Notes: generated from the sequence alone by a model not told the origin. 61,810 nucleotides of DNA, filler included, from Globobulimina sp. (GCA_003354225.1; 7 parts of 7 records of this genome joined end to end with filler, not necessarily neighbours in it), one strand, 5' to 3'. Shown: positions 4,944 to 34,300, counted from the whole stretch's first letter. A program made the numbers and translations.

Positions 4944-7407
4944 TAATCATTTTTTGGCAGTATGTTTTTCTCAAATTTATTCTATATCCATAACCATCCA
5001 ACTCTTTATCTTTTAGTTCCCATCCTTTCATTTTTAACTGTTCCTTTAATTTCCAATCTAAATCTTTCAATTTGACAAACATTTTCTCAGTTCTTTTATT
5101 TTTACTTTGCTTTCTTTTATTTATTTGATTCTCCGAAGAAGACGAATAATAATCAAAATAAACAAATTTCAATAGCATAAATTCTTTATTTCTTGTTTCA
5201 TTCAACCAGACCAAAAAGCGTTGAATATTATAATTATTAAATCTATACTTATTGAACAATGACAAGCCTTTCATATTTGGATAAATCCTGTCGATTTTAA
5301 AGAAATCAACGTTCCAAATATCGCCACCTGACATTATATCCTTTTCCTTATCATTCCGCAACATTAAACTCCTTAAACCCGGACTTATATCATCCAGAAT
5401 TACATGAAAATGATGGCTCGGTTTCAACATTATCTCGCTCATTTTTAGCAGAAACATTTCCTTACATTTTATCCCGTATTTCCTGTTTTCTTTTGTCGAT
5501 TTCAAAGCATTCTCGACTTTATTCAAATCATTCTCCATTTCATCCTCTCTGTACTCAATAGCTAATGTCAACAATTCGACATACACTTTCTCCAAAAACC
5601 TGTCCATTGAATAGATGCCTTCTAAAAACAACCGCATTGCAAAAAAATATAAACGGATTAAGTGAGCATTTTGTTTCTCAAAAACAGCAATATCGCTGTC
5701 CGGCATTATAATCGGTGTCTTGCTGAATATTTTCCTCACTCTCACATACATAAAACCAACTAAACGCTCAGACTCTTCTGGATAGTCACTGAGCTGCGAG
5801 GCGTCGAAGGCGTAACAAAGTGGCAACTGCGGATACTGCGAATTCATCTCAATGATCATTCCTTTGTCCGTTGCAAAGGTCGACGCCACGTGGTACGATG
5901 CGGTGGCACTAACAATTGAGAAACAAAAACAACATAACTTCCTATTTGCAAATTAATAGCAAATATGTATAATAGTAATATACCTCAATGGCCCCCATAA
6001 ACGTGACAAAATATTATGTCTTTGGATGATCATCAAAGGGTTGACGCCATGATAAAACCGCTTATAACCGATGGAAACAGAGAATTTCTTAATGGTCACA
6101 GTCAGACACTGCCTCCAATTCGAATACGATGACAACCTTCGTCTCATCGCTAATAATGTATCATCATCGTATTGGTAAACATAGTTCGTGATAATTCTGA
6201 AACATTTCTTTAATGCATGCTGCAGTTTATCAAAATCTGTATACAGTTTGATTGCGATGATCTCTTTCAGCGAAATAGTTTCGTTTTTCTCCCATTTCGC
6301 ATGCCTTATCTGCTCCAAATCTGAGGCATAGCCATGTTTCTCTTCGTTATGAGTCCGAATCGATTGCCCAATCCATGATCGCTTGATTTTTTTCGATTTC
6401 CGCAGCGTGTCATTCCAATCGTAGATAGTGATGATCTTAAATGGACAATGCAACACTTCATCCTTTATGTTGTCATACCTCGCTGTCACATTATACAAAT
6501 TCTTGACACCCTCCACAGATTTGATCCTCTGCCACACAAATTGTCCCATTTTCTTCTCCAATTTGATATACAACTCATTGCAAGTTTTGCTGTCACGAAC
6601 AATGCATTGCATTGTCAGTCTATCCTTGCCGCGAAATGTATTAATATCATCCTCGGCAATTTTATCATTCTCAATGTTTGCTACATTGTACGTGGCGATA
6701 TGTTTGCTTCTGATTCGAGTCATGATGGCGTATGATTTTAGCCTTAATTCCCATTCATTTTGTAATTGCAGTACCTCTCCGTCGCTGTGCACATTGAATG
6801 CATCTTTATATTCATCAGCAGATAGCACATCATCTGAACATATTGGATTCGCATATTTGAGTACACCGTGCAAAAAGTAAACATGTATTCTATCCAACTC
6901 GAGCTCCAATTCTTTCTCTGTTGAACATTCATCAGTGTTGCTCTTGTAATACAGCAGCAAATTTTCAACAGTCTTAGACTTATCTCGATGGTGTCTCTGA
7001 AAAGCAGGACATTGGTCGTTGCCGCAAACACGGTCAATACCGCACTTTCTAAGTATCATATTTTCAACATACGGAAATACGTTGTTTTGGGCGCTGTTGT
7101 TGTCTGTATGGAATCTTTGAATGTGCTGGAAATCAGCCAATATTGCCTCGTATTCGTATATTTTATAGGTGACAAAATGTGAAACAGGTTGTTTCATCCA
7201 ATACAGTGAGCAAATATAACTCTGATAACTGCACAGAATGATGATTAGTCTGCCAACACAGGGACAGAATTTGTAATCGTTGCAATCAAAGTTAACACAT
7301 TCTTCTTTAAGCCGTTGCTTGTGTTGTTGCAGCGCTATTGCGTCATTGTGGAGTATAGGAAATATTTTATCGAATTCTGCATCTTTTGTTTGGATTATAT
7401 CTGTCAT
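4918..7407 (-). CDS. ADP-ribosyltransferase-like (ART-fold) domain protein, 2 exons
   Basis: ORFs 5953-7584 and 4918-5889 join through GT-AG intron 5983-5909, giving KLYTD...FYHG...GPLSATASYHVASTFA.DKGMIIEM...SDYPEESERL. The start could be further upstream (7584). Confidence 0.65.
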
Positions 7408-8860: not shown

Positions 8861-8875
8861 GTACATGAACATTTT

Positions 8876-9057
8876 CTTATAAATGGACGCCCGTAAATGG
8901 CGAAATCGCTATATTTATAAGCTGTATAAATGGCATATAAATGACAAAAACATATTTATATAGCTATTTATAAGATTAGATTTCAATCAATATAAATAGC
9001 ATATAAATATGTTTTTTTGGATTGTCATTTATAAAGGTATTTATATAGCCATTTATA
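8876..9057. repeat. Nested imperfect inverted repeats (foldback) made of TATAAAT/ATTTATA units
   Basis: 8925 tataaatggc-atataaatgac-aaaaacatatttata-tagctatttata pairs with tataaatagc-atataaatatgttttt...gtcatttata...gccatttata 9057. A smaller stem cttataaat...atttataag (8876-8921) encloses GCGA-AA-TCGC. Confidence 0.8.
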
Positions 9058-9145
9058 TGAAATGTTTATAAATATGTTTTGAAAAAATAACATTTTTAAA
9101 AAAAATAATAAAAATTTACTAAACAAAGCAAACACAAAGCACTAA

Positions 9146-9921
9146 TTAGTTTTTTCTCCGTTTTGTTTGAGGTGGTGGATAAATATTAAATCTCCATGAA
9201 TTTCCCTCAAATGTTACGAATTTATAAGGTTTCCTTTTATTATTTCTATGTTTTCCAGATGCTAAGTTATATATTATTTATATTATATTTATATTATATT
9301 TATATTATATTTATATCTTATTTATATCGTATTTATATAATACCTTTTTTTGATTTCAAGTTTGGATGTCCTTTTTCAATCGATGCAGGTAATTGTGGTT
9401 TGGGTTCTATATATGAAGTGCAAGGATAATTCAGCGAATATGCGTAGATATTAACTGGTATGCACTAATTTGCGTTTATATGAACTTTTGATTTGTGTCG
9501 TTTTGATTGGTATCTGTAACATTGGCTTATTTTTAAAATAAATTAAATAACTTTTTAAAAGACTATCTTGCTGATTATACCATTTACTTAATATACGATT
9601 GAATTCAGTTAGAGCCGTATTCCCATTACATAATAAATTATGCAATTGTGGGGCTCTTTTAAGTAATTTACGCATTTCATAAGATTGATAAAAATGTTCT
9701 GGTTTACCACCGCCAATAAATAATTCTGAAACATATAATAATTTTTTTAAATAAGATAGTTTCCATAAATTGCAAGTGTTTAAATCTACAGCGACATCTT
9801 TACAAAAAATAGATTCTTTCAATTTTAAATTCAATGTTGATAATAAATATTCATTTTGATGTATACCAAAATTGATAATATCACTACCTGCAATATCTAG
9901 TGAAAGTCGACCTGTACTCAT
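9146..9921 (-). CDS. TGRxSLD-domain protein A (element accessory gene; frame break near 9455)
   Basis: N-terminus MSTGRLSLD. Downstream exons ~9454-9344 (..HPNLKSKK) and 9261-9146 flank intron 9343-9262, whose junctions match an intron of paralog B. The link between the 156-aa ORF and these exons needs an unusual intron or a frameshift. Confidence 0.6.
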
Positions 9922-10013
9922 GGTTAAATAAATTATGAAGTAAGTATTTAAAAAACTCTAAAGTCTGAATTGAAATCAAGAGCGTTAACTAAAAATATTA
10001 ATCCAATAAACTA

Positions 10014-11317
10014 TCATTTATCCTCATCTTCATCCAAACTATATCTTTTTGCATCATCATGAAATATATTATTTAAACATTCATCTAAACCTGAAACTGA
10101 CAAAGTTTCAAGTGTTGCCTCCTTCAAAATCAATCCCCATGTCGCTTTCATAAAATTCCGTTGCAAAGACGTATTTCTTGAATCCGTTCCCATAATCCGC
10201 ATCCGATCATGACGATGCCATGGCGCTGGCGGCCGCGCTGCTAAGTTATATATTATTTATATTAAATTTATATTTTAATTATATATTATTTATATGATAC
10301 TTATATAATACCTTTTTCTGATTCCAAGTTTCGAAATGATTTTTCAGTCCAATCAGCTGTATATATTTACATCACATTTATATACTCATTTAGATATATT
10401 TACATCACATTTATACACCATTTATATACCTCTAAATATTTTTGCATCAAAAAAATAGTCGACACTATTTATATATTATTTATATAATATTTATACATTA
10501 TATATAAAATATTTATAACATACATATTATTCGATATGTCATCATTTCCTTTCCTATTTATATATTAATTATATATCATTTATATAATATTTATATACTA
10601 TTTATGACATACTCATCAATCGGTGGCGAAAAATCAATACCATACCTGTTTATATGATATTTATATACTATTTATACACTATTTATATATTGTTTATAAA
10701 ATATATAGTGCATACGTGTCAAATCGTAGTGTTTTTAAATTTATGCCAGCAAAAATATCTTCTTTTTCTTTACGCTCTTTTTTAAACATACCAGCACGGA
10801 CACAGGCCTTTTCTTTTTCTTCTTCTTCTTGCGCTGTTTAAAAGCTATGATAGTGATGCGATTTTGCGCAAGCATATATATAAATTAATATACCATAACA
10901 CACGGATTTTGCGCAAGACACTGCACACGGATTATTCTGAATATAGATTTTATATATTTGTTTATGTAATATTTGATCAAGGCGCCAATTATCTGATATA
11001 TGCGCAAATTCTTTCGCAAATTCATCTTGGTTTTTATAAATTATTTCATACAATTCAAATGATCCCTCTTTTAACATTCGTAATGTAGAACTTTTATCAT
11101 ATGAAAAATGAATATCTTTTGTTAATTGATACATATATGCAAAATTCCATAAATCCGCTGTATAAAATTTAAATGCCACATCACACCCTGACAATAACTC
11201 AGATTGCTTATAGTTGTAATTTAATATTGATAATGTATACTCATTTTCGTCATGCAATATAAAATCAATAATCGTGCCGCCACCTTCGATATCTAACGAC
11301 AACCTTCCGGTGTTCAT
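10014..11317 (-). CDS. TGRxSLD-domain protein B, 7 exons, 303 aa
   Basis: Exons 11317-10894, 10833-10716, 10645-10613, 10553-10524, 10464-10430, 10356-10312 and 10240-10014. All introns are GT-AG and the frame stays open (912 nt). Confidence 0.75.
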
Positions 11318-11424
11318 GATTAAACTCTTTGACTGCTGACAGAGTGTGATGAAAATCAGAATTCTAAAAACCTCTTTAAATAAATTGTTTAAACACAAAA
11401 CAAAAAAAAAACAAAACTCACATT

Positions 11425-14400
11425 TTACTTATTTTTATTTTTATATGCACATCCCATCGAACTGCAATATTTCCATAATTCATTCAATTCAAATCGATCG
11501 TTAAAATAAGATTTAATTTGACTGAGTCTATTTTCATTAATAAAATGATATCTATACTTTTGTAAATAAACCCATAACGATACATTATGGGTATGTGTCC
11601 ACTTTTTATTTTGATTAAATTCTAAATTTTTCTCCAATATATCATCATAAACTTCATTTCTAAGTTCATCCAAATCCAAATCAATGATTGGTAAAAGTCT
11701 ATTTGTTCCATCCTTTGCTTTAAAAGTTCCCTCAAATAATTGCAAATTAAATGTGCCAGTAAATATTTTTTCTAACTCATTAAAAACATCAGGATACATC
11801 AAAGAATACGGCTCCCATTCAGGTTGTATTCTTTTTGACTTTTCTTTCCGTCCCTCCTCAAGCCAATATTTAAAACATTTATAATTTGCAGCAAATTCAA
11901 ATATTGCTCCATTTATATATGCCAATACTACTCCTTGTCGACCAAATTTCCATCGATATATATTTAAAAGATTATTGCGTGCCTCTAAACCCATAATTCC
12001 TAAAATAATTATATATTTATATATTAAAAAAAACTACAAACCAAAATATAGTATATAATTTGGTACCAATATTAGGAATTGCACGGTCACACAATCCACA
12101 ATTAAATAACATCATAAGATGGTTTGGCAATAATTCAATGTCTCGACGATTCCTGTATCCAAACGAATAATGATTATATACTGGATCTTGATATTTATTT
12201 TGTTTACAATCTTTTGGCTCGAATCTATTTATATATTATTTATATATTATTTATATGATAGTTATATACTATTTATATATTATTTATATATTATTTATAT
12301 AATAGTTATATACTATTTATATATTATTTATAACATACAAATAATCTGTCCATGTTCGCCAATGTGACTCCATTTCGCATTGGAATTGAACAGGAGATGA
12401 AAATGGCATTTTTAATAAAGATTTTATTTTATCACAATCACTATCTCTCATTTCCAAAATATGTTTCGCCCACCAAAGAGGCATACAAATAGGTGCAGTA
12501 TAACCCGGTATAACATCACATTGTATTTTACCATTGGGGTATTTTAAAGATCGTCTGTAATAAAGATCAAAATCATGCACGTAACAACCTTTGCCAAGGC
12601 CAAGCTTGACGCAATCAGCATTCCTCCCTTCTTTATATTTATCATATTTGATCGTATCAATATCATATCCAACGTCTTGCTTATATGCATTTTTTACATC
12701 ATCAAATTCAAATTTACCCATAAGAAATGCAAAATAATTTGGAATATCACAGGGCGCTAAATGAATTATTGCTTGTCTCATATTTACTTTCATTCTTTCT
12801 TTATCATCGTCTGTAATCTACAAAGATACATGCATTTATATACTATTTATATAGCATTTATAATACATCTATATAGCATTTATAATACCTTTTTAGTAAT
12901 ATTTTTATTTGACACTTCCCAGCATTGATGAAATGGGCGATCTGCCAATCTGGTTTCGTTTGTGTTTTTTACATATACACGGAAGGTATCAATATTATCA
13001 TCGCCGTATATATCCTCTCTGTCAAGCAAATATTGCGTCAAACCCATTTCATATTGTTTGCATGGATAATGTTTAACATGCGGTAAGTCATGGCGTCTGG
13101 TTTTTTCACAACGATCCCAAAAAGCTAATCTACTTTCTGCGGATATTCTGTAGTATTTAAGTGCGCGATATCGTCTCTTTGCAGTGATTAATAAACTTTC
13201 CCGATGAAAACCACACGCAGTTGACTATATAAACAATATGTAAATTATATATAAATACAATGTAAATATAATATAAATACTATGTAATTATACCACTGCC
13301 AACATTAATTTTACCCATGCCGTTAAATTATAATTCCATCTTCTTTTCCGGCCTGTTTTGGGATCACATTCAGGAAACAATATTGATTTCTTTGTTTTTT
13401 TATCATAATGTTCTTGTTCTAACCCGCCCATAACTAGTTTGCACACATTTTTGTTTACACCCAATCCATCCGTTCTTATTTGAAATCCTTTTTTTTCTTT
13501 TTCACATTTTTTCATATTTTCTTTGACAACACGCTTCATGACCGGAATAAAAGTACCATGCCCTTCACCTTTTGGTACTATTCCTTGATGTAATATAAAA
13601 TTGGGCCCTGTTGAAACTATTAAATATGAACATGGAATTGGTTGATCTGTCGATAAATCTGCACTCTCATCAAATGTTTCATTGTATTGCGATTCACCAA
13701 TCTCTTTGATATCATCCTGTTCATTTTCTTTTGTTTCATCTACATTTTTTTTTAATTCTTTCCATGGATTTCTTGCAGATAATATATGCGCATCGACTTT
13801 ACCATATATATTACGAAATGATTTCTCTGTCCAATCAACTAAAAAGATTTTGTAATCAATGCGCATTAAGGCATTTCTAATCAATTCTATTTATATAGTG
13901 TTTATATACCATTTACAAACTATTTATATACTAATTATAGATAAACATACGATTTGCTTTACGCAATATAAACTTTAACATCCATCGCTTAAAAAAATCA
14001 AAATGACCCCGGTTACAAATACTTTGCATAACTAAATGATCTAAATCGTGTTCGGGATAATATAATTCTTCTTTGTTTAATACAGTTTGAATTTCCCCCA
14101 CACGTTGGTTCATAAAATCAGTGACCCATTGAGACACTTTGGAATTTTGCGTTTTTAATGAATTTTTTAAAATCCATGATATCTATATATTGATTATATA
14201 TTATTTATATATTATTTATACGCTAGTTATATACTATTTATATAATATTTACATGTTATTTATATATTTTTATATGTTATTATTTATATATTATTTATAT
14301 ACTTATTTATATGATATTTATATATTATTTATATAATATTTACATATTATTTATATAATATTTACATATTATTTATATACATACCAATCGTCCAGTGATA

Positions 14401-14852
14401 AACATACCGCCAGTGCCAATACTAAATATTCTGCGTGTTTTGCCACCATCATATTCTACATACACCTTCGGTACACTAAGGACATCTTCATCTAATACGC
14501 GTATATTACGACAGAATTGTAGAGCAGGCGAGCATTTATTACTTCGTAGACATCGAATGCGTGATGACATAACTCGAATGTTACTGTTCAAACTAACAAC
14601 ATTATGATAAGCTCCTTTATTTAGACGTTCTTGAAAAGGACAATAATTTCCTGCAATTTCTTTACATTTCCGGGACCCGCAGAAACCTTTAATACTTGCA
14701 ATGTCACGGTCCATATATATTTTGCCTTTGTTAACATTTATATTATGAACATGTTGCAAAGTTGCATTCGTTGTTAGTAACAGCGCATTTAATCCATCTT
14801 GCACTGTTCTAGTCTGTTGATTAATCATCTTTGCGCTTTTTGAAAAACGCAT
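11425..14852 (-). CDS. DDE transposase (MULE/hAT-type CxxH signature), 7 exons, 946 aa
   Basis: Exons 14852-14385, 14182-13951, 13886-13294, 13224-12889, 12817-12339, 12224-12067 and 11999-11425 (2841 nt, open). Cys-rich N-terminus, then FDESAD, IRTDG 67 aa later, CGFHRESL and GIMGLEARNN. Confidence 0.72.
14183..14384. repeat. Longest intronic ~11-bp tandem array (consensus ATTTATATA[T/A/C]T)
   Basis: tattatttata-type units fill the 202-nt intron. Similar arrays occupy most introns between 9262 and 17443. Confidence 0.85.
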
Positions 14853-14938
14853 TGTAACCGGTGTAGAGTGATAAAGTGATTTAGACTGCTTTACACTTTT
14901 CAAAAAACACTTTACTTTGTAGTCGAATGACACAAACT

Positions 14939-17618
14939 ATGGCTACTGGAAGAGTCAGTCTCGACAGCATCACAGGCAACGCAGCAGAGTTCGATACGTT
15001 TGGCGAATATTGCTTGTTTAAATTGCGGATGATATTGCAACAAAATGAAGATTTTGCGGCAATCCCAATCCAAATGAATATTGGAAAAATTTGGAAATCT
15101 CGGTTTGTCATTAAATTAGCTGCGCATTTGCCAGAGCATACACGGCAAATAGCAATTGGTGGTGCGGCCTTAGATAAATCGTTAGACGGATATGAGCCGC
15201 AAAAAATTAAAAAATGTTGCCCCGTATTGTACGCTTTAATATATGACAAAGAGAACAAAGATATGCGACTAATATGCAATGAATTTGAAGAGACTATGAG
15301 TGAATGGCATGAGGAGATTAATGCATATAGAATGTTTTACATGCAACGACTTGATAAGACCTATAATATCACCAATAACAACACCAATAATAACCATAAT
15401 ATCAACAATAACAACATCAATAATAACAACACCATTGCAGGTATTGCGAATTTGCGTTATATTTATTGCGAATTTGCGTTATATTTATATATTGTTTATA
15501 TAGTATTTATATACATATTTATACCCTAGTTATATACTATTTATAACTTTATTTACTATATATAGAATTTATTCCATCCGCCACCGCAAATATTATTCTG
15601 CCACCCATTAGCAGCTTTATGGAGGCTCCCTTAACCCCACAACAAATGCCAAAGACCACTCCCATAACGATGATAAAAGATAAAAAAAAAGAAAAGGCTG
15701 AAAAAGAATTGGCAGAGAAAATAGAGAGAAAGGCAGCAATACAACGTTTAAAGAATTATTCTAAGTTTTTTAATTGGGCGGCCGGTATGTTTATGACATT
15801 AATACGTCCTCATTTGCTACCAGAGGAGGTTAGTTTGCTCATTGTGTATCGAGAGAATTGGTGGGTTATTAATAAGGACATCGTTGAAAATTGTGTTTTA
15901 GATTTAACTGCAGAGAAAAAATTAACAAATGTTAATAGTAAGGAAGCATTGTTATTTTTACACGTTAAGTTATATATAAATATATTATAAACAATATGTA
16001 AATATATAGTAAATGATATATAAATATATTATGAATATAATTTATAACTTATGTAATATTTACATATTATTTATATAATAGTTATATACTATTTATATAT
16101 TATTTATATAGAAAAAAGGTAAATTAAATATTATTAATGGACTTAAATTAAAATGCCATACTGATTACAGCTCCTTTAAATTCGGCAGTCCGTGGATTAA
16201 TGCTGAATCTTTCAATATAAATGGTCTTGGAAAGCATTTCGTCGGTGTCCCTAAAAACAGAGAGAATGATACGTGGCGTGAAGACCATCCAGATATTGCG
16301 GGTGTATTACGGTTATTTATATATATTTATATTATATTTATATATTATTTATATAATATTTACATGTTATTTATATATATATATATATATTTACATAGTT
16401 ATGCTGTTAGAAATGTTATTAATTATGCTGTTGATGAATATATGGAGCATGAAGTTATTGCGAAGTATGAGAAGGGAGTAATTGGATATAAGCGAAGAGT
16501 CGCTCGTGTCAATAAAAATTATGAAAAGAATATCATTAAATATGAAGGTAAAAGCAGAGGAGCGAAAAATGAACCAACCGTTAACGTACAATATACTCAA
16601 AGATTGGTCGACGAAAATGGACAAATAACCACAATGAAGATTGATGAACAATTAAAAGTATCAAAATTAGATCATCATTTGGATTTTGGCATATCTCTTA
16701 TTCCTGAATATGTTGGCGTTTTTCAGGATAACGCGCCAGTGCCTACGAAGCACCATTTGACTGAACAATATCTGAGCAAATTCATACTGTTTGGATATGT
16801 CCCCGGATTAAATTTACATCCGTCATATATCACTGACACATTAGAAGTCTTAGGACTTGTTGACATGACAAGTATGATATAAACACTATATAAATATCAT
16901 ATAAATATCATATAAATATTATATAAATAAGATCAAGATGATGATGTGGTTCAAAGAATGTATAAGTGGTCCCGGGAACCACCGCCACCGTCAAAAGATG
17001 AAAAAGAAAACGGTAAGTGTGTCATACCTTTATATAAATTACCTGCTTTGAATCAGCGTCATAAACTTTTATTAAAAAATCCATTACCCCGTAACATTAC
17101 AAAACCATTTTTATCGCGTGAAATACTTCTATCTAATTCAAAATATAAAGAAAAACGCGATAAAATTAGAATTAAGAAGGAAAAAAAGATGAAAAAGGCT
17201 GGAAACAGTAAAAGGGAAATGGATAGTGATGAATTGGACGATTTTGAAACTACGCTAACTGATTTTGTGCAAACTGCTGCTGAAAAGTATGGATATAAAC
17301 GAAACAACTCTCAACGAAATGATGATCCTTCACAATATGAAGAATCCCCAAAGCGCAAAAGTTATGATTTTATTTATACAATATTTATATTATATTTACA
17401 AATTATTTACATCACATTTATATACCATTTATATATTAATTAGGCAGGAATAAAGGAGATCCTGATATGATGGACGTTGACAGTGAGGAAGAAAAAAAAG
17501 AAAAAAAAAAAAAGAAAAAAAGTAAAACAGGAAAAAAAAGAAAAAAAAAAAAAGAAGGAAAAGAAGAAGGAAAAGGAAAAGGAAAAGAAAAAGACAAAGG
17601 AAGAGGAAAAGGAGAAGG
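14939..17618 (+). CDS. TGRxSLD-domain protein C, at least 6 exons, Lys-rich tail, 3'-truncated
   Basis: Exons 14939 (or 14927)-15440, 15566-15963, 16112-16311, 16399-16871, 16932-17360 and 17444 to the contig end. All introns are GT-AG and the phases are consistent. N-terminus MATGRVSLD. Confidence 0.75.
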
Positions 17619-18267: not shown

Positions 18268-19434
18268 TTACAACATATTCAAGTTCTTCCCTTCATTTAT
18301 TAATAAATCCTTAGGAACAGAAGACTTTTTACCAAATGCATATAAAACTGTACCAATGTTGACAACGGCCGCAGATATTCCCATAATCCATGTAAAACAT
18401 TGGTCACTATGAGAATGACAAAATACTATACTTACAACAGCAAAACATAGAACCGATTGCAAAGCTTTATTAACCGCAGCAGTGACTGATGATGATATAC
18501 CTACAACATAATAAAAGCCGATATAATGTGCAGCGAGAAAAAATGCTTGTAAACTCCAATAAAATATTATCAATTTGTAACTTACTTTAAAATGATCACT
18601 GACAAAATTATTAAACTGTCCAGCAACACTATACATTGCAATATATGATAAAGAAATAAATAAACCAATTATTCCAACTCCTGTGGTAATCTCCCATTCA
18701 GTAATAATTATATTTAATTGTTTATTTTGTTTAAGATCCAATGCACGTTCGGAGAATACGTACATTGCTGCATCACACAAGGCCGCTATTAAAGTTGCAA
18801 ATATACCAAATATTAGTTTGATATTAAATTCATTCAATTCAGAGTCAATACATGTAAGTGCCAACCCAACAGTAATGAAAATAATTGAAAACCATTGTAA
18901 ATTCGTTAAGTTTTTCCTAAATAAAATGTATATATATTTGTAGGATTAGTGAGATGGAGATGGACATTTTCGGGTTAGAGATCACAATGTCACTAAGCCG
19001 ACAAATACCGGACCTGTTACCGGTCCATGGCTGTACCTTAAATAGAATTTACGGATTAATCCTGTGAATATTGTAACTGATGAATATAGGACAATATAAA
19101 TCGTAGCTCCAGCAGCTTCATAAGCATATGCCGCTGCACATACATCAAATACATCAAATAGAGCAATTGGTAAAATGTATTTCATTTTAATCCATGATAA
19201 TTGTAACAATGGAACGTATTCTTTATCCATTTCATTCAATTGGGTCCGCTTTACATAATCAATTATCACGGGAATCATTGAAAAACATACCATCCCAGAA
19301 TATTGAGATACATTTGCTAAAAAGGACCAAGGGTAATTACCTCCAATATATGTTTCTTTTTGATATAATAATACCATTGGCGGCCCAGTGAAAAAGAACG
19401 ATGACTGAACCAGTATTTGCATGACAACAGACAT
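18268..19434 (-). CDS. Drug/metabolite (DMT, SLC35/purine-permease-like) transporter, at least 2 exons
   Basis: Intron 19036-18917 joins ..IYIVLYSSVTIFTGLIRKFYLR|KNLTNLQWFSIIFITVGLA.., giving about 10 TM segments. The start is uncertain. Confidence 0.75.
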
Positions 19435-26474: not shown

Positions 26475-26574
26475 NNNNNNNNNNNNNNNNNNNNNNNNNN
26501 NNNNNNNNNNNNNNNNNNTTAATTAATTAANNNNNNNNNNNNNNNNNNNNNNNNNNNNNNNNNNNNNNNNNNNN
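26475..26574. other. Artificial contig spacer
   Basis: N44-TTAATTAATTAA-N44. Confidence 0.98.
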
Positions 26575-26698
26575 AGGCAGAGAAGATCGTCATCAAATAG
26601 TAAGTAAAATTGAGAGTGATAAATTAGAAAATTTAGTAGAAAATTTAGTACTAGAAAGATTCAAATTAATTAAAATTAGAAAATATAAATACGCTAGA

Positions 26699-29600
26699 AT
26701 GCACACTGCTAGCGGTAGAAAAGGATACTCTTCTACTCGTATAAGGAAGGATAAACGTAGACCAAGATCTAAGTTAATCCAAAAATTCGAGAAAAGTGCC
26801 ATGGAAGAAGAAGAGAAAACTAGAAATTTTATGAAAGCTGGTTATCTAGATAATCAGTCGGAAAGTGCCGACTCGGATCTAGATACAGCTGACGATATAA
26901 CCGATGATAATATTATCATTAGAGACTTATTATATGATATTATAAATGAAATAGATGATAAAACAGTTATTAAATTAGATTTTGAAAATATGTATGACAA
27001 TACTAATATGAATGGTCGGTATATACATCATAATGATGGGGTGTTCCGACCTTTGGGATCGGAGACCTCAAAATTAATTGATGCACAAGGAGACCATACT
27101 ATTATACCTGCTAAACATACCCGTATTAGTATCGTAGAAGATAAAATTATATTAAATGATTACGATAATATGGTTGTCCGATATAGAGGATGGGGGACTA
27201 TATTATATGATGATCATGTTCATATGGATGAGGTTATTCGACCCTTAAGATCGGAAGACCATTGGCATTACGATAATTTCAAGATTATCGATAATAAATA
27301 CGTAATAAAAACTTGTACGTACCATATGGAAGGAAATTATGAATATGAGTATGGAGAAAATTGGTATAATGTAGAAAATTCTATATTCATAACTGATAAA
27401 ACTAAAAATATAAATTACAAAAATTTATACAATATTTTATTTGATGAATCAAAATCAGTTATAAGTATAGAAAATTATAATATGTATAAAACCCGGTATA
27501 CACAAACTCCGGACCGTACGAGAAACTCTCCGGAACATAGAATTAATATACGCAGTTTGAATAACAAACTATGTAATTATTCCATATTATGTGTGGAGAG
27601 TGAAACTAAAGATGATAATATAAGATTAAATATCATCTGGGATAAATTAGCTTGGATACAACTCCAAATTATGGAAACTTCTAAAACAGTAGAAGGAAAA
27701 CGCATCCATAAAGTTATAAATAATGTACTTCGAGACTTGAACGAAAACTTTACTAATTTAGATGATAATTCTATAGAAGATATACGACGATTTTATAACT
27801 ATGCCGAGCAAAGATTGACTAAATTAGATGAATTTTGTACAAAAGCATATACTAATAAATGTACCCCTATTTCAGGTATGGCAGAACAAAAGCCCATAGA
27901 CGATCAAACAACATCTTCAACTATAACTGAAACAGCAAGCGGGTCACTCGACTCCTCTGCTTTAGCAGGAGGTTTGTCTGGCCTTAGCACTGCTGAGAAA
28001 TCCTCCGATAAAACTTCAGAAAATATAGAAAATGTAGAAATGGTAGAAAATAAGGATGCTTGGAAAACCTCTGCATCTACTAGAGCCATTCCGGATGACC
28101 CGGATAAATATGAAGAATTTGTATCACAATACAAATACCCTGCAAAACTAGAAAAATTTATAAATAAATTATACAACGAAAAGGATTATGTATTTAGAGA
28201 TAGTGAAGAAATTGAACATACAATAGAAATCGGTACAGACCCTATACCTAGAAAGGCTATGTCCGATGCAGAAGTAGAATTATATACAATTAGAAATGAA
28301 TTTATATACAATATGGCATCAGGAATGGGATATGAAGATACTGAATGCCCAGAACATAGAGAATTAAACTTAGAAATTATTCGAAAACTTCGTTTTTATA
28401 TAAACGATACAGAAAGTAAGCCAGACATACCTGTTCTAGGGGTACATCTGGCCGAAATATTAAAATGTATAGAGAAGAAAAATTTGTACGATATTGCAAG
28501 AAGTATAGATGTCGGCGAATCATTACAGAAAATTATGAAAGAAATCACTATTATGATGTTATCTACAAATAAATGGATTTTCACAATTAACAAAAATGTG
28601 AGAATCCTTATTCAAAATGATAAATATCTTACAGAACAGGTTAGAAAATTAAATAAAATAGCAGTAAAAAATGAAGAAAAGAACAAAGAATTAGAACAAT
28701 ATAAAACGGCTAAAAATCAAGAAATTCAAAAGTTGAATAACGATATAACTGCTATGAAAAACGAAATGATAGAAATTAGAAAATTGTATACCACCGTCCC
28801 TCCTCCAGTTATACAACCAGATATAACGGTGGAAGTAATGCCGGAAGCAAGAGATAAAATGGACTTATTAATTGGAGGAACATATGATTGCCCTTTCAAT
28901 TTGGATAAAACCACAGACATTAAACTATTAACTAAAATAAATGAAGATGGTGAAGAAAGATTCGTAACATACCATTCTTTCAACCATTACTTATATATGC
29001 AAACGGCGATCACTTGTCTTGATTGGGACATGGTTCGCAGATTGTCAAAAATTAAAAATAAAATATGTTTCGAATTAATACTACAAAAATGTCCTATTGA
29101 ACGATACCAAGAAAATATAACAACGTTCACAGAATCATGGATTGCCAATTGTTATTATAACTTTATGGATTATGTAATAAAAAGAAATTTAACCTTGGCT
29201 ATGATTTGCGGTAAAATAGGACATGAAAAATATAATACTAAATTCCTTATAAAAGATGAATTATTAGGTATCGGATATAACATAAGCCAAGAAAATATAT
29301 ACTTATATAAATATGAAAACATTACAGCAAAAAATAATTTATTAGGAAAATCTATTATATATTTATGCAACAAATATATTGCAACATATGTAGAACTTGA
29401 TGCAGCAGATAAAAAATTAGCAGATCACGAGTTTGCTACAAATGCAGCAACTTGGATGATTACTAATAAAAATGAAGATAAAGCATTAATAAATGCACGT
29501 ATAAAATGTTTACAAAATATAAAATGGGAAAAGAAATATCCAATAAAAGGGAATATTCAGATAATTAGAAATGAAAGATTCTCCTTCGCTGACACTCAAT

Positions 29601-31390
29601 TCAGTCGAGGATTTAACCTAGGTGACGCACCTTGGAATTCCTTTCTATCTCGAGGAGAACTCAACGAAGCAAGAAAATTAGCTGCAGAACAATATGATAA
29701 AAAAACCCCTGAATATCAAGAAGAATTAAAGAAAACGATAAGAGAAATGTCAAGTAGAAAAATGGAAGAAACTAAAATCAGACTGGAAACTGCTTCAGCT
29801 GAAAATATATTCGAGAAATTTGCTAGTGAAGATCTGGATACGTCATCAGAAATTTTAGACAAAAATCCACATCCAGAATCAAATATAAAATTAGAACCTG
29901 AAGAAAAAAAGAAACAATCTGCCGGATCTGTCCAAGGTGATCCCGACCGGCAAACCCCTATATCATCTGAAGGAAGTATAAAAAATATAGAAAGTGCAGA
30001 TGATGATAGTTTCAAAAAACCCAATGAGTGGCAATTACAACGTGGTAGAAAACATAGAAGTCCTGGACGCGGGAGAGGATATGGTCGTGGATATGGCGGA
30101 AGAGGATACAACAGAGGACGTCAAAGTAGACCATATTCTTCAACCCATATATCTAGAGACCCTTCATCAGAGGGAGAATATAAACAACCATATATAGCTG
30201 GTAAACCAACAGAATTCTCGGCTGCTGGAATATTTGGTTTACCCAATATAGCAAAAAATATACCAAAAAGAAAATCGTCTCAATCTAGGGATAGAACGGG
30301 CTCCCAAGGAAGCCAAGATCCAAATATTAAACAACAACGTTTATCTATAAAGTCGGGCATAGAAATTATAGACGAAGCACATAAACGTCTACCTGATAAT
30401 AAATTACCGCCCATATCTCAAACTTATAACTTAGAAAATTTATTGGATGCAAATATATTTTTGGGACTCATTAATGACCCCTACGAGGGTAAAATCCATG
30501 CATATCCAGCAGGAAAAATTTTCCTGCAACCTATAGAAATGAAACCAAAGAGAATTCCATTAAATTTGTCGCCTCTAGCTGAAAGACACGGACAAATATT
30601 AGATCCTACATTAATTGATAGTACAAAATCATTCCGAGTTCCTAATAACTTGAATCTCTCCATTTTGGGAGACTCTACGACTTATGGATTGGAGGATTTT
30701 ATATTAGCCACAACTAAAGAATATGACGTTAAAAATTTTGTACATTATAACGGTATGAGATCATCCGGAAGTGCCTTTTTGAGCCTTCGTTTGAGATCTA
30801 TGATGACATTAATGCCAGCATTGGTTTCCAATGATGAGCATGTTATTGTTATAAAAGGAATCCTTGATTGTGCTGACATTGTCAATAATCAAGTTTACCA
30901 ATCTCAAGTTTTTGAGGATTGGAAACATTATTGCGGTCAACTAGTCAAAGATATTAGTAAATTATGCCATAATATACATAGTATAAATCCAAAAGCATTA
31001 ATGTTGATATCATTAACAGCTCCGATCTTGGGTCACTCTAATTATATGAGAAGTGAAGAAGATCCTGGATTTTTGATATTAATAAATGAAATAGAAAAAT
31101 ATTTAACTTTAGAAATTAATTTATTAGCAGAAAAATCTGCACTGCCGATTAGATACATTGCTCTAACAGCAGCTATAAATCATGAAGTACATAGATTAAA
31201 GAAAGAAGCTGAAAGACAGAGTAATTCACCAGTAGAAATTACCGATTCAGTAGAAAAATTTATAACTGGTATAAAATTAACTAGAAATGGCCAAAAAATA
31301 TTGGCTAATGAAATAATCAGAGAATCAATAGTTGGATGGATTAAATTCTCAAGTCCCGACTCAAATTTATTGCCTTCGGGAAACTTATAA
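26699..31390 (+). CDS. LINE ORF1: coiled coil, NADAR-like domain, RG-rich tract, SGNH-hydrolase-like domain
   Basis: Coiled coil ~28630-28790. GGTYDCPF...YHSFNHYLYMQTA...D...DELLGIG...NNLLGK at ~28867-29375. RGRGYGRGYGGRG at ~30070. ILGDS...G..DC...TGIKLTRNGQKILA at ~30658-31320. Confidence 0.8.
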   Translation: MHTASGRKGYSSTRIRKDKRRPRSKLIQKFEKSAMEEEEKTRNFMKAGYLDNQSESADSDLDTADDITDDNIIIRDLLYDIINEIDDKTVIKLDFENMYDNTNMNGRYIHHNDGVFRPLGSETSKLIDAQGDHTIIPAKHTRISIVEDKIILNDYDNMVVRYRGWGTILYDDHVHMDEVIRPLRSEDHWHYDNFKIIDNKYVIKTCTYHMEGNYEYEYGENWYNVENSIFITDKTKNINYKNLYNILFDESKSVISIENYNMYKTRYTQTPDRTRNSPEHRINIRSLNNKLCNYSILCVESETKDDNIRLNIIWDKLAWIQLQIMETSKTVEGKRIHKVINNVLRDLNENFTNLDDNSIEDIRRFYNYAEQRLTKLDEFCTKAYTNKCTPISGMAEQKPIDDQTTSSTITETASGSLDSSALAGGLSGLSTAEKSSDKTSENIENVEMVENKDAWKTSASTRAIPDDPDKYEEFVSQYKYPAKLEKFINKLYNEKDYVFRDSEEIEHTIEIGTDPIPRKAMSDAEVELYTIRNEFIYNMASGMGYEDTECPEHRELNLEIIRKLRFYINDTESKPDIPVLGVHLAEILKCIEKKNLYDIARSIDVGESLQKIMKEITIMMLSTNKWIFTINKNVRILIQNDKYLTEQVRKLNKIAVKNEEKNKELEQYKTAKNQEIQKLNNDITAMKNEMIEIRKLYTTVPPPVIQPDITVEVMPEARDKMDLLIGGTYDCPFNLDKTTDIKLLTKINEDGEERFVTYHSFNHYLYMQTAITCLDWDMVRRLSKIKNKICFELILQKCPIERYQENITTFTESWIANCYYNFMDYVIKRNLTLAMICGKIGHEKYNTKFLIKDELLGIGYNISQENIYLYKYENITAKNNLLGKSIIYLCNKYIATYVELDAADKKLADHEFATNAATWMITNKNEDKALINARIKCLQNIKWEKKYPIKGNIQIIRNERFSFADTQFSRGFNLGDAPWNSFLSRGELNEARKLAAEQYDKKTPEYQEELKKTIREMSSRKMEETKIRLETASAENIFEKFASEDLDTSSEILDKNPHPESNIKLEPEEKKKQSAGSVQGDPDRQTPISSEGSIKNIESADDDSFKKPNEWQLQRGRKHRSPGRGRGYGRGYGGRGYNRGRQSRPYSSTHISRDPSSEGEYKQPYIAGKPTEFSAAGIFGLPNIAKNIPKRKSSQSRDRTGSQGSQDPNIKQQRLSIKSGIEIIDEAHKRLPDNKLPPISQTYNLENLLDANIFLGLINDPYEGKIHAYPAGKIFLQPIEMKPKRIPLNLSPLAERHGQILDPTLIDSTKSFRVPNNLNLSILGDSTTYGLEDFILATTKEYDVKNFVHYNGMRSSGSAFLSLRLRSMMTLMPALVSNDEHVIVIKGILDCADIVNNQVYQSQVFEDWKHYCGQLVKDISKLCHNIHSINPKALMLISLTAPILGHSNYMRSEEDPGFLILINEIEKYLTLEINLLAEKSALPIRYIALTAAINHEVHRLKKEAERQSNSPVEITDSVEKFITGIKLTRNGQKILANEIIRESIVGWIKFSSPDSNLLPSGNL

Positions 31391-34300
31391 AGGTCAGTTC
31401 AATTTTTACCACAACTAATCCCATAATTAACACAAACTTTTCAGATTCAAATATTGATGTGTATAAAGATGTGTATAAAGACCAACCTATAAAAGATAAA
31501 GATGTAGAAAATAAAGATAAAGACAATGAAATAATATTAATTGATCAAACAATTGATATATTATATAACAATGTGTGTTCTATGAACACCAAATTTGAAT
31601 TAATAAATGATAACATAAAACTTATAAAACCAGATGTTATTTGTTGTGTTGAAACAAAATATAAAACTGTCTTAGACTTGCATAAATTTGATGAATATGA
31701 GAGTTTTCATAAAATGCAGATTGGCAAACCTACAGGCGGTATTAGCATTTGGGCTAAATCTGAAACTAGACCAAGCAGATTAGATATAGATGACATCGAT
31801 GATGAAATATCTATGAATTATTTATGGATATTATGTCAAAATAAAGCAATGACTGCTATATGTGCTGTATACCTTAGAAATCAAAGTGATCCAGACGCTA
31901 GAGAAACAAATACAACAATATGCCAAAGATTAATGCAACACATTAACTGGTGTAGATTACATAATTATAAAGTCTTTGTTATTGGAGACTTTAATGGACA
32001 CATCGGCAATGATGAATGGGGAATAAACGAAAACCATGACGATATAAATAATAATGGATTCATAATAAGAAATTTTATTAGAGACTCAGATTTAAAATTA
32101 TTGAATTCAGACTTAGAAACTGAAGGTAAATGGACATGGGGTTATAATAAAAATAATACAAAGCCCCAAATTCTCGATATAGCATTGAGAAGTCCAGATA
32201 TTACAAATATTAAAACGATTATTGACGAAAAAAATAATATATATGGTAATATTGGTAATAAAGATCATTGCTTTATACATAGTAAAATAAGTATTAAAGC
32301 TAAAAATAAAATATTACAAACTAAACTAATTAAAGATAAATGGAAAATAAACGATGAAACTAACTGGCAACAATATCAAGAAGAAATTAGAATTAAAATT
32401 ACTGAAATGGACAGTAATGATAAAATAACAGAAAATTCAATATTTAAAATAATAGAAGAAGCGGGAGTCAAAAGTATTGGATATAAAAATAAAAATATTA
32501 AGAAAAAGAAAGAATCAAAGAAGATTAGACAATTAAATTTAGAAATTAGTAATTATAGGAAAGAACTACGTAAAAATCCTGAATTTAAAGGAAATATATT
32601 AAATGAATTATTTAAGAAAATACGAGAAAGACGACAAATTAGACAGAGAGCTGAAATGGCTAGAATAGAAAATGCCCATAATAAATGGATTAATAATCCA
32701 AAAAGGAAATTTCATCAACTATATGATACTATGAAAAATCTAAAAAGAGGTATAAGTGAAAAGGTGACACTAATAGACGAGGATAATATACCAATAATTG
32801 GAGAAGAAAAGATAAATTCACACATAACAGATTTCTGGGAAAGTATTTTCACATTAGGAATATGGCCCGAATCGAATGATGAAATGAAGAGATTAGGAAT
32901 GAGTAATATTATAAATGGACCAGATAAATTAGACCTAGAAAATGAAATTTCAGTGAAAGAAATTAAAGATGCTATACATAAACTTAAAAATAATACATCA
33001 GCTGGAACTACTAATATCCCTCCAGAATTTATTAAAAATTGGCCTGAAGAAATGACACATTTATGTCATACACTTTTTAATAAATGGTTTGATTCCAGTT
33101 ATTTTCCAGAAATAGGGAAAACTCAGGAAGTAACATTATTACATAAAAAAGGATCAAAAAGTAAAATTAAAAATTATAGAACTTTATGCTTGGGATGTAA
33201 TTTATGTAAATTATATCTACTAATATTAACTGGAAGATTAGAAAAAATAACAGAAAAGAAAAATATATTAGGATATATACAACACGGATTTAGAGCAAAT
33301 AAAAGAATTGAAGACTGTATTTTAGTTATCCAACATACAGTACAGAGAGCTAATAAATTGAGAAGATCCGAATCCCCTATTGTAGCTCTACTAGATATTT
33401 GTAAAGCATATGATAGAGTGTGGAGGAAAGGTTTATGGAAAAAATTAAAAGATTATGGATTCCCAGATAAATTGATAAATGCGATAAAAAGTAGCTACCT
33501 GGATCCGGGTGCTACAATAACATTTCAAGATACTAAAACTAATAGACTAAAAATGCCAGTAGGATTAAGACAAGGATGTACGATGTCACCTATATTATGG
33601 GCATTATTCATAGCTGATTTAGGTAAAGAAATAGAAATGTGTCACCTTGGTATTGAAATAGGAACTACAGAAAATAAACAAAACATATCTGGATTATTTT
33701 TTGCTGATGACATGTTATTATTCGCAAAAAACGAAAATAACATGAAAAAATTATTAAACATTGTAGGAAATTACGCTAATAAATGGAAAATAGAATTTTC
33801 AGGCCCTAAAAGCCTAATTATACCATTAAAAAGACCGGTAGAGAAGGAACGAAACTGGTCTTTAGGACATAAATATATCTCGGAAGGAGAAAAGAAGGAA
33901 ATATACATACAGGAAGAAAAAGAAGCTAAATACTTAGGAATTACTCTATGCCAAAATAGCATGGATATAATGAGGAAACATAAATTAGATTTAGTAGAAA
34001 GAACTAGAAAAGAAACATACAGATGCTACAAACCCGCTACAGTAACATCTAGACCGATATTATATGGAACTAAAATATGGCAAACATATGTTATACCAAA
34101 AATATTACATGGTATAGCAGCAATTCCATTTTCAATAGAAACCTTTAGATGTATAGAAACTCAACAAAGAGAATATATAAGAACGATTGCCAGATTACCT
34201 AGAGGATGCAATAATATGGTACTATATGGAGAAACAGGTTTAATTCCCATGAAAATGGAAGCTGAAAAACGAACCATTAACTACCTTGCTCACATACAAA

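Follow-up and report, generated by a model that had tools for sequence, protein, structure and literature searches.

Why should nearly every intron of one small set of genes be built from the same short tandem repeat, and does that repeat act as DNA, act as RNA or do nothing at all? The question is raised by a stretch of 61,810 nucleotides from Globobulimina sp. (GCA_003354225.1; hereafter the window), which consists of seven pieces with N spacers between them. The finding is confined to one of these, the 8758-bp piece 8861-17618, on which 16 of the 18 putative introns are arrays of an 11-bp unit, TATTTATATA-N (Table 1). This contig is best explained as the larger part of a DNA transposon-like element with several genes. 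The host of the mobile element is an AT-rich protist, and according to PMC6783311 the PJEL contigs are those left unassigned in a metagenome associated with Globobulimina.

Table 1. Genes, putative introns and foldback of the element-bearing contig, in window positions.
Feature	Position	Strand	Evidence or remark
Foldback: long imperfect palindrome of ATTTATA/TATAAAT motifs with G/C-containing spacers	8911..9075	.	DNA fold
Small gene g1: N-terminal M-x-TGR-L-SLD helical domain, two introns	9146..9921	-	
g1 array intron: ~7 units, ATTTATA on the + strand	9262..9343	-	lag-11 match 0.85, 0/500 shuffles
g1 intron, non-array	9455-9551	-	one of three possible models
Small gene g2: TGRxSLD N-domain; 3' half of micro-exons between five arrays	10014..11317	-	
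g2, five arrays	about 10243-10313, 10359-10431, 10460-10523, 10549-10612, 10640-10716	-	splice sites ambiguous
Large gene: 946 aa, six introns, Cys-rich N-terminal exon, probable RNase H-like core in exon 3	11425..14852	-	
Large-gene intron 1: array, ~17 units	14183..14384	-	GT-AG, TRF, shuffles
Large-gene intron 2: array	13887..13950	-	GT-AG, TRF, shuffles
Large-gene intron 3: array, inverted relative to its neighbours	13225..13293	-	GT-AG, TRF, shuffles
Large-gene intron 4: array, 22-bp higher order	12818..12888	-	GT-AG, TRF, shuffles
Large-gene intron 5: array	12225..12338	-	45-nt exact stretch in common with array 16049-16110
Large-gene intron 6: no array	12000..12066	-	L001 counterpart likewise without array
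Gene g4: TGRxSLD N-domain, at least 724 aa, Lys-rich low-complexity tail running off the contig	14942..17618	+	
g4 intron 1: 5' part a 22-bp duplicate, remainder array	15441..15565	+	
g4 intron 2: head-to-head, inverted half 15971-16039, forward half 16049-16110	15964..16111	+	
g4 intron 3: array plus (TA)n run	16312..16398	+	weakest periodicity, attained by 37/500 shuffles
g4 intron 4: inverted array	16872..16931	+	
g4 intron 5: array	17361..17443	+	

Arrays of period 11, 22 or 33 were returned by TRF at all modelled array sites. In 16 of the 18 putative introns, self-match at lag 11 or a multiple of 11 exceeded that of 500 dinucleotide shuffles; no shuffle attained the observed value in 12 array introns, and 2, 2, 11 and 37 of the 500 did so in the four weaker ones. 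The count in the original prediction, about 16 array introns in 18, is thus borne out, and the periodicity is stronger than in composition-matched shuffles. All 13 introns modelled in the large gene, g4 and g1 have GT-AG borders and restore the reading frame on removal, and by these borders and the restored ORFs we regard the array introns as putatively spliceosomal. The arrays fill them nearly from donor to acceptor, a single base at the free position of the unit yielding TAG in either orientation, and no constant unit phase was seen at the intron ends. They are strictly AU-rich whichever way they run, and where the sense strand reads TATAAAT a retained intron would meet TAA stops at once. 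In g2, more than 200 ORF-preserving exon chains are possible and no unique chain can be derived; a short DWTEKSFRN exon in this gene is similar to the third exon of the large gene. The two introns of the piece that are not arrays lie in the large gene (intron 6) and in g1. The controls were three introns of host type, together with some 52 kb elsewhere in the window. Introns 5909-5983, 18917-19036 and 57947-58109 all have GT-AG borders and none is an array, as had been noted before. Piece 8861-17618 has 37 forward and 5 reverse copies of TATTTATATA; none of the other six has more than one, which is background level, and the enrichment over each is at least 37-fold.

Relatives of the element were located among metagenome contigs by search with a 6-sequence alignment, a 17-sequence alignment being too diverse; the same 6-sequence search of viral contigs found no relatives. 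Two related contigs, L001 and L002, come from one public assembly. L001 has the same gene order as the window element and 59% amino-acid identity to it in the large gene, and their exons differ at a dS of about 1.09 and a dN of 0.30 (dN/dS about 0.28), with 54 of 123 four-fold sites identical. L002 is more distant, at about 35% identity. Intron presence and absence among copies, a comparison proposed with the original prediction, showed that all six large-gene positions and four in g4 are common to the window and L001, and that three are shared with L002.

The arrays of L001 have the 9-bp core of the window and its two loose positions. Unit profiles match between ~114 window units and ~135 L001 units, with 1.3-2.0 bits at positions 1-9, 0.7-0.9 at position 10 and 0.1-0.2 at position 11, and even minor variants recur in both (C at positions 1 and 7, G at position 2). 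Under neutral drift of the consensus at the synonymous rate, the chance that nine sites all stay unchanged would be about 5e-5, and at half that rate about 7e-3. In L002 period-11 arrays fill the introns as well, but they are built on another core, ATATTAATG-Y-N, again with nine fixed and two loose positions; L002 has hardly any copies of the window motif, and the window hardly any of the L002 motif. We set aside a TATA-box/TBP interpretation of TATAAATA, the L002 core not being TATA-like. Isolated arrays of at least four units in three giant-virus MAG contigs and three bacterial genomes were likewise dismissed as chance look-alikes rather than relatives; in the four-unit pattern scan all were intergenic, in AT-rich genomes, and none lay beside a relative of the element proteins. 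Conservation of the motif core between two diverged copies suggests a DNA-level role. Such a role, proposed when the arrays were first noted, is plausible, and the case for it has gained strength: the core has been kept in L001, whose synonymous sites are saturated, and the more distant L002 has another core at the same intron positions. The arguments then given for it, from orientation and from a period near one helical turn, are weak: the 11-bp period is common to the three lineages by descent and is therefore not independent evidence of function.

The arrays had also been described as oriented to the element and not to transcription, with two inverted arrays (large-gene intron 3 and g4 intron 4) and one mixed array (g4 intron 2). 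The exceptions are as described, and the rule holds in part. Within the window, the way the unit runs on the + strand does not depend on gene strand (10:1 versus 3:1, Fisher p 0.48) and orientation relative to transcription differs between genes (p 0.033); two L001 genes fit this pattern, but the small genes of L001, on the same strand as its large gene, have mostly the opposite array orientation (3:8 versus 5:0, p 0.026). Orientation is identical between the window and L001 at seven of nine comparable introns, so it looks largely inherited. Head-to-head arrays occur in g4 intron 2 and in L002 at 1540-1688 and 520-650; the L001 homologue of g4 intron 2 is one-directional.

The intron motif also builds a foldback, as originally claimed, at the contig end, which is not proven to be the element end. 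It lies at least 70 bp past the g1 stop, outside genes, and folds at -49.5 kcal/mol (z -9.4; none of 200 shuffles folds as well). A similar inverted motif is found at the end of L001 (10060-10143, z -4.2). The foldback is present at one contig end only, the other breaking within a Lys-rich coding repeat, and no element ends, TIRs or TSDs were seen on the contig.

What the element encodes bears on what the arrays might bind. The large gene, divergently transcribed from g4 across a gap of ~90 bp, probably encodes a transposase of the DDE type, built on an RNase H-like core. In its AF2 model (pLDDT 77), exon 3 has the element order b1-b2-b3-a1-b4-a2 with invariant D/E residues, and two acidic residues, the D of DWT(E/Y)K and D141 of RTDG, are conserved; the third acidic residue was not located. 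Structural comparison brings up RNase H-like domains (the cores of Argonaute PIWI and retroviral integrase) at a VIA Z of 5-6, below the level of a clear match, and Foldseek gave no match at E<=0.001. No Pfam model matched any of 14 exon pieces or the 17 aligned relatives. An ESM Atlas lead connects exon 3 with P-type transposases (PF21787 on 21 of 30 feature hits, score 0.91, recognition below threshold); membership of the P element/THAP9 superfamily is not supported by Pfam, PF21787 and related models matching neither the exons nor the 17 relatives. A THAP C2CH zinc finger in the N-terminal exon is not supported either, given no invariant His among the three lineages and no Pfam or Atlas match; five Cys (C58, C63, C71, C101 and C114) are invariant there across the three. 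The TGRxSLD N-domain present in g1, g2 and g4 forms a bundle of helices for which Foldseek gave no informative match, and no DNA-binding fold was identified in the element proteins. An exhaustive phmmer search returned only 20 relatives, all exon-sized ORFs; a word-index protein search gave no match, with longer or near-length targets, and a PDB profile search only low-complexity noise.

We tentatively favour the explanation that the arrays are lineage-specific cis-acting DNA sites in introns, probably binding sites for an element protein; neutral concerted evolution and an introner-like origin are serious rivals. Observed are the arrays, the intron positions, a core that is conserved and yet specific to the lineage, and exchange between arrays, whereas we infer splicing and transposition as well as protein binding and the identity of the binder. 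The old, putatively spliceosomal introns are almost wholly occupied by repeats of an element-specific 11-bp unit, a TATTTATAT core plus two loose positions. As binder, the transposase (through its Cys-rich N-terminus) and the TGRxSLD proteins are candidates. The sites would be spread along the element because introns are the sole non-coding space in so compact an element; gene conversion between arrays, together with selection on the core, would keep them alike within a lineage, and the core would shift with the element lineage, being TATTTATAT in the window and L001 and ATATTAATG in L002. Points against this explanation are the exchange between arrays, the subterminal position of known transposase-binding repeats and the chance occurrence of similar isolated arrays in other AT-rich genomes. 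A broader version, in which a transposon family stores dozens of lineage-specific predicted protein-binding sites in introns along the whole element and its arrays occasionally make introns, seems to us possible yet doubtful.

It may instead be that the arrays are minisatellites evolving neutrally and in concert, anciently seeded and homogenised by slippage and gene conversion within and between copies, with a functionless unit and with L002 drifted beyond exchange. Arrays of different introns contain exact matches of 45 nt in the window and 63 nt in L001, the result of sequence exchange within an element, and such exchange means that molecular drive could homogenise the arrays without selection. 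Higher-order periods of 22, 33 and 44 bp occur, as is typical of unequal exchange, L001 has tandem exon-plus-intron duplications with periods of 149 and 104 bp, and descent accounts for the 11-bp period and for the mostly inherited orientation. If the window element and L001 resided in one genome, ectopic exchange could explain their common core as well. Yet neutrality leaves unexplained the initial seeding of ~15 introns with unrelated flanks, the concentration of variation at two unit positions that are the same in all three lineages, the core unchanged at a dS of about 1.1 and the presence of the motif in the terminal foldback, and L002 keeps a different core though it is in the same public assembly as L001. 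We consider this account rather unlikely on balance.

A third account would have the repeats create the introns, the arrays being non-autonomous foldback derivatives of the element ends that were mobilised by the transposase and spliced out, much as introners are. The near-complete filling of the introns, the TAG supplied by a single free-position base in either orientation and the foldback-like head-to-head arrays would suit such an origin. So would the only two introns that look lineage-specific: an extra in-frame, V...K-bounded, GT...AG-compatible array-like insert inside exon 3 of one relative (P0012), missing from the other 16 aligned sequences, and the array intron that stands right before the DWTEKSF codons in g2-type genes, where the large gene has none. 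At the position of large-gene intron 3, ORFs of relatives run on into array-like sequence. Intron positions shared at 35-59% amino-acid identity nonetheless mean that the introns are old rather than recent gains, so that the recent lineage-specific positions of introners are not what we found; neither TIRs, TSDs nor a constant unit phase was seen at the intron ends, no arrays turned up in the three host-like introns or elsewhere in the window (52 kb), and the account addresses origin, not later conservation of the core. Repeat-driven intron gain, the alternative offered with the original prediction, thus draws limited support from the P0012 insert and has against it the old, conserved positions of the main introns; we hold it unlikely.

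A role at the RNA level (splicing or regulation, for instance AU-rich intron definition, control of intron retention or small-RNA hairpins) would agree with the AU-richness and immediate TAA stops described above and with the RNA hairpins that head-to-head arrays would form, but is highly improbable, because both orientations within single genes would give different RNAs, which argues against a strand-specific signal, the head-to-head form of g4 intron 2 is not conserved in L001, host-like introns need no such arrays and the motif also lies outside genes, in the foldback.

Binding arrays are familiar in other mobile elements. Subterminal transposase-binding repeats, such as the 12-bp TnpA motif of En/Spm-CACTA elements, the Ac hexamers and the internal 10-11-bp sites of the P element, are, to our knowledge, subterminal, within a few hundred bp, and none is known to be spread over all introns. 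The arrays described here resemble them in being a short element-specific motif with many direct and inverted copies, found by the contig end and accompanied by a probable DDE-type enzyme; they differ in being strict head-to-tail 11-bp tandems in nearly every intron over at least 8.7 kb, with binding only predicted. Foldback-type elements (Drosophila FB, and Galileo of the P superfamily) end in short tandem repeats able to fold back on themselves. The window foldback is likewise made of short repeats, and the ESM lead ties exon 3 to P-type transposases; unlike FB and Galileo, the foldback was seen at one contig end and the Pfam P-type model found no match, and we know of no description of internal intron arrays in either. 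Introners, known from Micromonas, Aureococcus, fungi and dinoflagellates, are near-identical copies dispersed in host genes, often with TIRs or TSDs. Here too a repetitive family makes up whole putative spliceosomal introns, with some lineage-specific gain (P0012), but the arrays are 11-bp tandems confined, as far as visible, to the element's own old introns. Plasmid iterons are direct-repeat binding sites spaced at about one or two helical turns, replicon-specific and co-evolving with their protein; they are prokaryotic, non-intronic and few. The window arrays are also direct repeats with a period of about one helical turn, but they are intronic and many, and neither a replication protein nor signs of an origin were seen in the element. 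Our literature search found neither a report linking introners to tandem arrays in transposon introns nor a description of introns housing DNA-level cis elements of a mobile element, and the accessible part of PMC3079666 has nothing relevant on arrays in introns.

If the arrays are functional, introns would be kept as housing for the DNA-level cis elements of a mobile element. The full-length element might then be marked or coated in cis, so that, for example, complete copies are mobilised over deletion derivatives; assembly of a filament-like transpososome would be another possible use. Site and binding protein would co-evolve between lineages, and the two cores, TATTTATAT and ATATTAATG, offer a co-evolution pair in related lineages for testing how a transposase recognises its own element. 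If the arrays are neutral, they would represent an unusually clean case of minisatellites, dispersed over one 9-10 kb element, evolving in concert. Either way, they bear on how repeats can give rise to introns, or come to occupy them, in protists, a group with barely studied genomes.

Testing which GT-AG pairs join neighbouring open frames, we rebuilt the gene models on the piece that carries the element (window 8861-17618, the second of seven; GC 0.287) and obtained four genes: g1, g2 and a large gene on the minus strand, and g4 on the plus strand, which starts ~90 bp from the start of the large gene. The large gene encodes 946 amino acids and has six introns, g4 has five, and g1 has two, the second of which admits three possible models; g2 holds five more arrays between micro-exons, with putative splice sites and >200 frame-keeping exon chains. 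The original observation that about 16 of 18 introns are tandem arrays of an ~11-bp unit was borne out: self-match at a lag of 11 or its multiples exceeded dinucleotide-preserving shuffles (500 each) in 16 of the 18 putative introns, the observed value being reached by 0 of 500 shuffles in 12 of these and by 2, 2, 11 and 37 of 500 in the four weaker ones, and the other two are not arrays. The check proposed with it, Tandem Repeats Finder on the element's introns, returned arrays of period 11, 22 or 33 at 17 sites along the piece. Of introns on other pieces, the three said to be free of arrays are all GT-AG and indeed lack them; TATTTATATA is found in the element's piece 37 times in forward and 5 times in reverse orientation, and 0-1 times in each of the other six. 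As also described, the array motif builds the terminal foldback, a long hairpin beyond g1 (-49.5 kcal/mol, z -9.4).

The pieces of the 61,810-base window measure 8760, 8758, 8756, 8755, 8754, 8732 and 8695 bp, in descending order, and are separated by spacers of 44 N + TTAATTAATTAA + 44 N; judging from these sizes, each piece is probably an entire contig from a fragmented assembly, placed in order of length, so that the 'ends' of the element's piece would be contig ends. One of them falls in a poly-A/G-rich run, the low-complexity tail of g4 rich in Lys and Glu, which is also a break point of the related contig L001, and at the opposite end both sequences break inside or beside the motif foldback, which suggests assembly breaks at repeats common to many copies. 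The other six pieces encode ordinary eukaryotic proteins, including MFS, PH, ankyrin, SPRY/EF-hand and TORTIFOLIA-like domains.

Coordinates of features in the window and in the related contigs L001 and L002
Feature	Sequence	Position	Strand	Remarks
(A/V)DWTEKSF(R/S)N exon	window; L001; L002	10325-10366; 8676-8710; ~700-735	minus (L002)	b1 strand motif of large-gene exon 3
Motif hairpin	window	8911-9075
Introns that are not arrays	window	12000-12066; 9455-9551
g4 low-complexity tail at break	window; L001	17480-17618; 1-151
Tandem duplications	L001	7303-7580; 8766-8969		149-bp and 104-bp periods; unit is micro-exon + array intron
Duplicate of large-gene parts	L001	6324-6668		downstream of large gene; aa 429-459 + 889-946, separated by arrays
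LINE-like retroelement ORF	window	31345-34971		endonuclease + reverse transcriptase domains; long, without introns
LINE-like retroelement ORF	window	48516-52862		endonuclease + reverse transcriptase + RNase H; long, without introns
1619-aa open frame	window	26531-31390		no Pfam match; immediately upstream of the first LINE-like ORF

No exon of the element's genes matched Pfam. The small genes and g4 have in common an N-terminal M-x-TGR-x-SLD domain, modelled as a helical bundle for which structural searching gave no informative match, and the N-terminal exon of the large protein has five invariant Cys and no invariant His. When exon 3 of the large gene was searched exhaustively with phmmer against 1.84 billion representatives, just 20 proteins came back, each an exon-sized ORF. 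Modelled from an alignment with 16 of these, exon 3 has the order b1-b2-b3-a1-b4-a2 (pLDDT 77), with conserved acidic residues in DWT(E/Y)K and RTDG. Foldseek gave no match to this model at E<=0.001, and the top rows in VIA-align were Argonaute PIWI and retroviral integrase cores (Z 5-6, middling by the tool's scale). In the ESM Atlas, exon 3 lay nearest to clusters with PF21787, the RNase H domain of P-element type (21 of 30 hits at a score of 0.91, recognition lying under the threshold of the tool); Pfam's own PF21787 model matched neither exon 3 nor any of the 17 aligned sequences. Given the predicted fold, the acidic residues and these weak structural and ESM Atlas leads, the large protein is probably a DDE-type transposase, not placed in a superfamily.

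Two related public contigs, L001 (PJEL010005580.1, 10,143 bp) and L002 (PJEL010057540.1, 2,744 bp), were found with a 6-sequence alignment; according to a passage in PMC6783311, the PJEL accession holds contigs of a Globobulimina-associated metagenome assigned to neither the bacteria nor the draft genome. Gene order is the same in L001 and the window: g4 and the large gene diverge, and the small TGRxSLD genes come after the large gene. All six large-gene intron positions are shared, the first five introns being arrays and the sixth a non-array in both, as are four intron positions in g4. Identity between the two large proteins is 58.8%; dN is 0.30 against dS ~1.09 (pS 0.575; only 54 of 123 four-fold sites identical), so that synonymous sites are nearly saturated and purifying selection acts on the protein. 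The large gene of L002 is 29-36% identical to that of the window (tblastn segments), and L002 has introns at the positions of large-gene introns 1-3, filled with period-11 arrays of another unit. The arrays are old occupants of old introns. Within L001, modules of exon plus intron have been duplicated en bloc, and the short duplicate downstream of its large gene represents either an incomplete second copy or a small chimeric gene.

The unit in the window and L001 is of the type TATTTATATA-N, and ~114 window units and ~135 L001 units give an identical profile: T-A-T-T-T-A-T-A-T at 1.3-2.0 bits per position, a weaker position 10 (A ~71%) and a free position 11 (0.1-0.2 bits); the minority bases agree too, with C at positions 1 and 7 and G at position 2. 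If the consensus of such a concertedly evolving family is assumed to drift at the synonymous rate, nine unchanged positions would be highly improbable (P ~5e-5 at K 1.09, or ~7e-3 at half that rate). In L002 the unit is ATATTAATG-Y-N (A-T-A-T-T-A-A-T-G-Y-N), again with nine fixed and two loose positions. Since the window motif has only five scattered hits in L002, and the L002 motif three in the window piece and two in L001, none of them in arrays, the unit is specific to the element lineage, while the 11-bp period is most simply common to the lineages by descent. We also scanned 2.9 million viral contigs and a prokaryote collection with a four-unit pattern of the window motif, which matched three contigs, all of giant-virus MAGs, in the first and three bacterial contigs in the second. 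Each has one intergenic array of 4-8 units in AT-rich DNA, and no relative of the element's proteins was found on any of the six. Isolated arrays can therefore arise by chance; 17-21 arrays at one locus are another matter.

What has to be explained is a 9-bp core kept within a lineage and changed between lineages, exchange within the element, and the same motif in the foldback. We tentatively favour the reading that the arrays, housed in introns, serve an element-encoded protein as cis-acting DNA sites. The main rival, which we consider rather unlikely, is neutral concerted evolution of dispersed minisatellites. It draws direct support from exchange tracts: 45 exact bases, including a distinctive variant unit, recur between the array of large-gene intron 5 and the forward-oriented half of g4 intron 2, and 63 between introns 1 and 5 of the L001 large gene, so that arrays within one element exchange sequence. 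The best match between the window and L001 is 29 bases. Yet it explains poorly the initial seeding of many introns, the position-specific conservation and an unchanged core at saturated dS, although the last difficulty vanishes if arrays are exchanged between lineages living in one genome.

How the arrays arrived may be explained by an introner-like origin from foldback derivatives, which we regard as doubtful and which fits both views of how they are maintained. The exon-3 relatives bear on intron gain. Their ORFs mostly end at one exon-3 border, reading on into array-like translations (e.g. IYILFIY), so that the intron there and its repeat content are widespread in the family. In P0018, a relative richer in GC, the ORF continues past this border into a CT-rich simple repeat instead (CLCLCLSLSI...), and the putative repeat-filled introns there are not limited to the AT-rich motif. 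Another, P0012, carries inside exon 3 an extra 23-residue, V...K-bounded, array-like insert that is absent from the other 16 sequences and is consistent with a gained array intron, as seen in protein only. In the g2-type genes of the window and L001 an array intron lies right before the DWTEKSF codons, where the large gene has none; at each of the three loci the corresponding short exon recurs in the small accessory genes, with an array intron before it every time.

The original description of inverted and head-to-head arrays proved correct on recheck. The accompanying claim, that orientation follows the element and not transcription, stands for the window and for g4 and the large gene of L001, which show the same pattern. 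In the window, 10 of 11 arrays in minus-strand genes and 3 of 4 in g4 (its mixed intron left out) read ATTTATA on the plus strand; plus-strand orientation does not vary with gene strand (Fisher p 0.48) and orientation relative to transcription differs (p 0.033). The arrays in these counts are not independent, since an intron of g1 and one of g2 are related by descent (family D4). The rule is not general, because the small genes of L001, on the same strand as its large gene, mostly have the opposite orientation (8 versus 3, against 0 versus 5; p 0.026). Orientation is the same at seven of nine comparable introns of the window and L001 (large-gene introns 1, 2, 4 and 5 and g4 introns 3, 4 and 5, with g4 intron 2, mixed in the window, not counted), and differs at large-gene intron 3 and the last g1 intron, whose homology is probable, not certain; array orientation thus looks mainly inherited. 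Single genes contain arrays of either orientation, which speaks against an RNA signal specific to one strand; a role for the arrays in RNA is very improbable, the least likely of the readings.

The known kinds nearest to this finding are transposon cis-repeat arrays or repeat-built introns. In the literature we found no description of transposon introns built from element-specific tandem arrays, which is weak evidence of absence from a search that covered few subscription journals. For this element, splicing, protein binding and transposition are processes that we infer. If its arrays are cis-acting sites, an element-encoded protein would act on the DNA at these arrays, and introns would house them because non-coding space elsewhere in the element is scarce.
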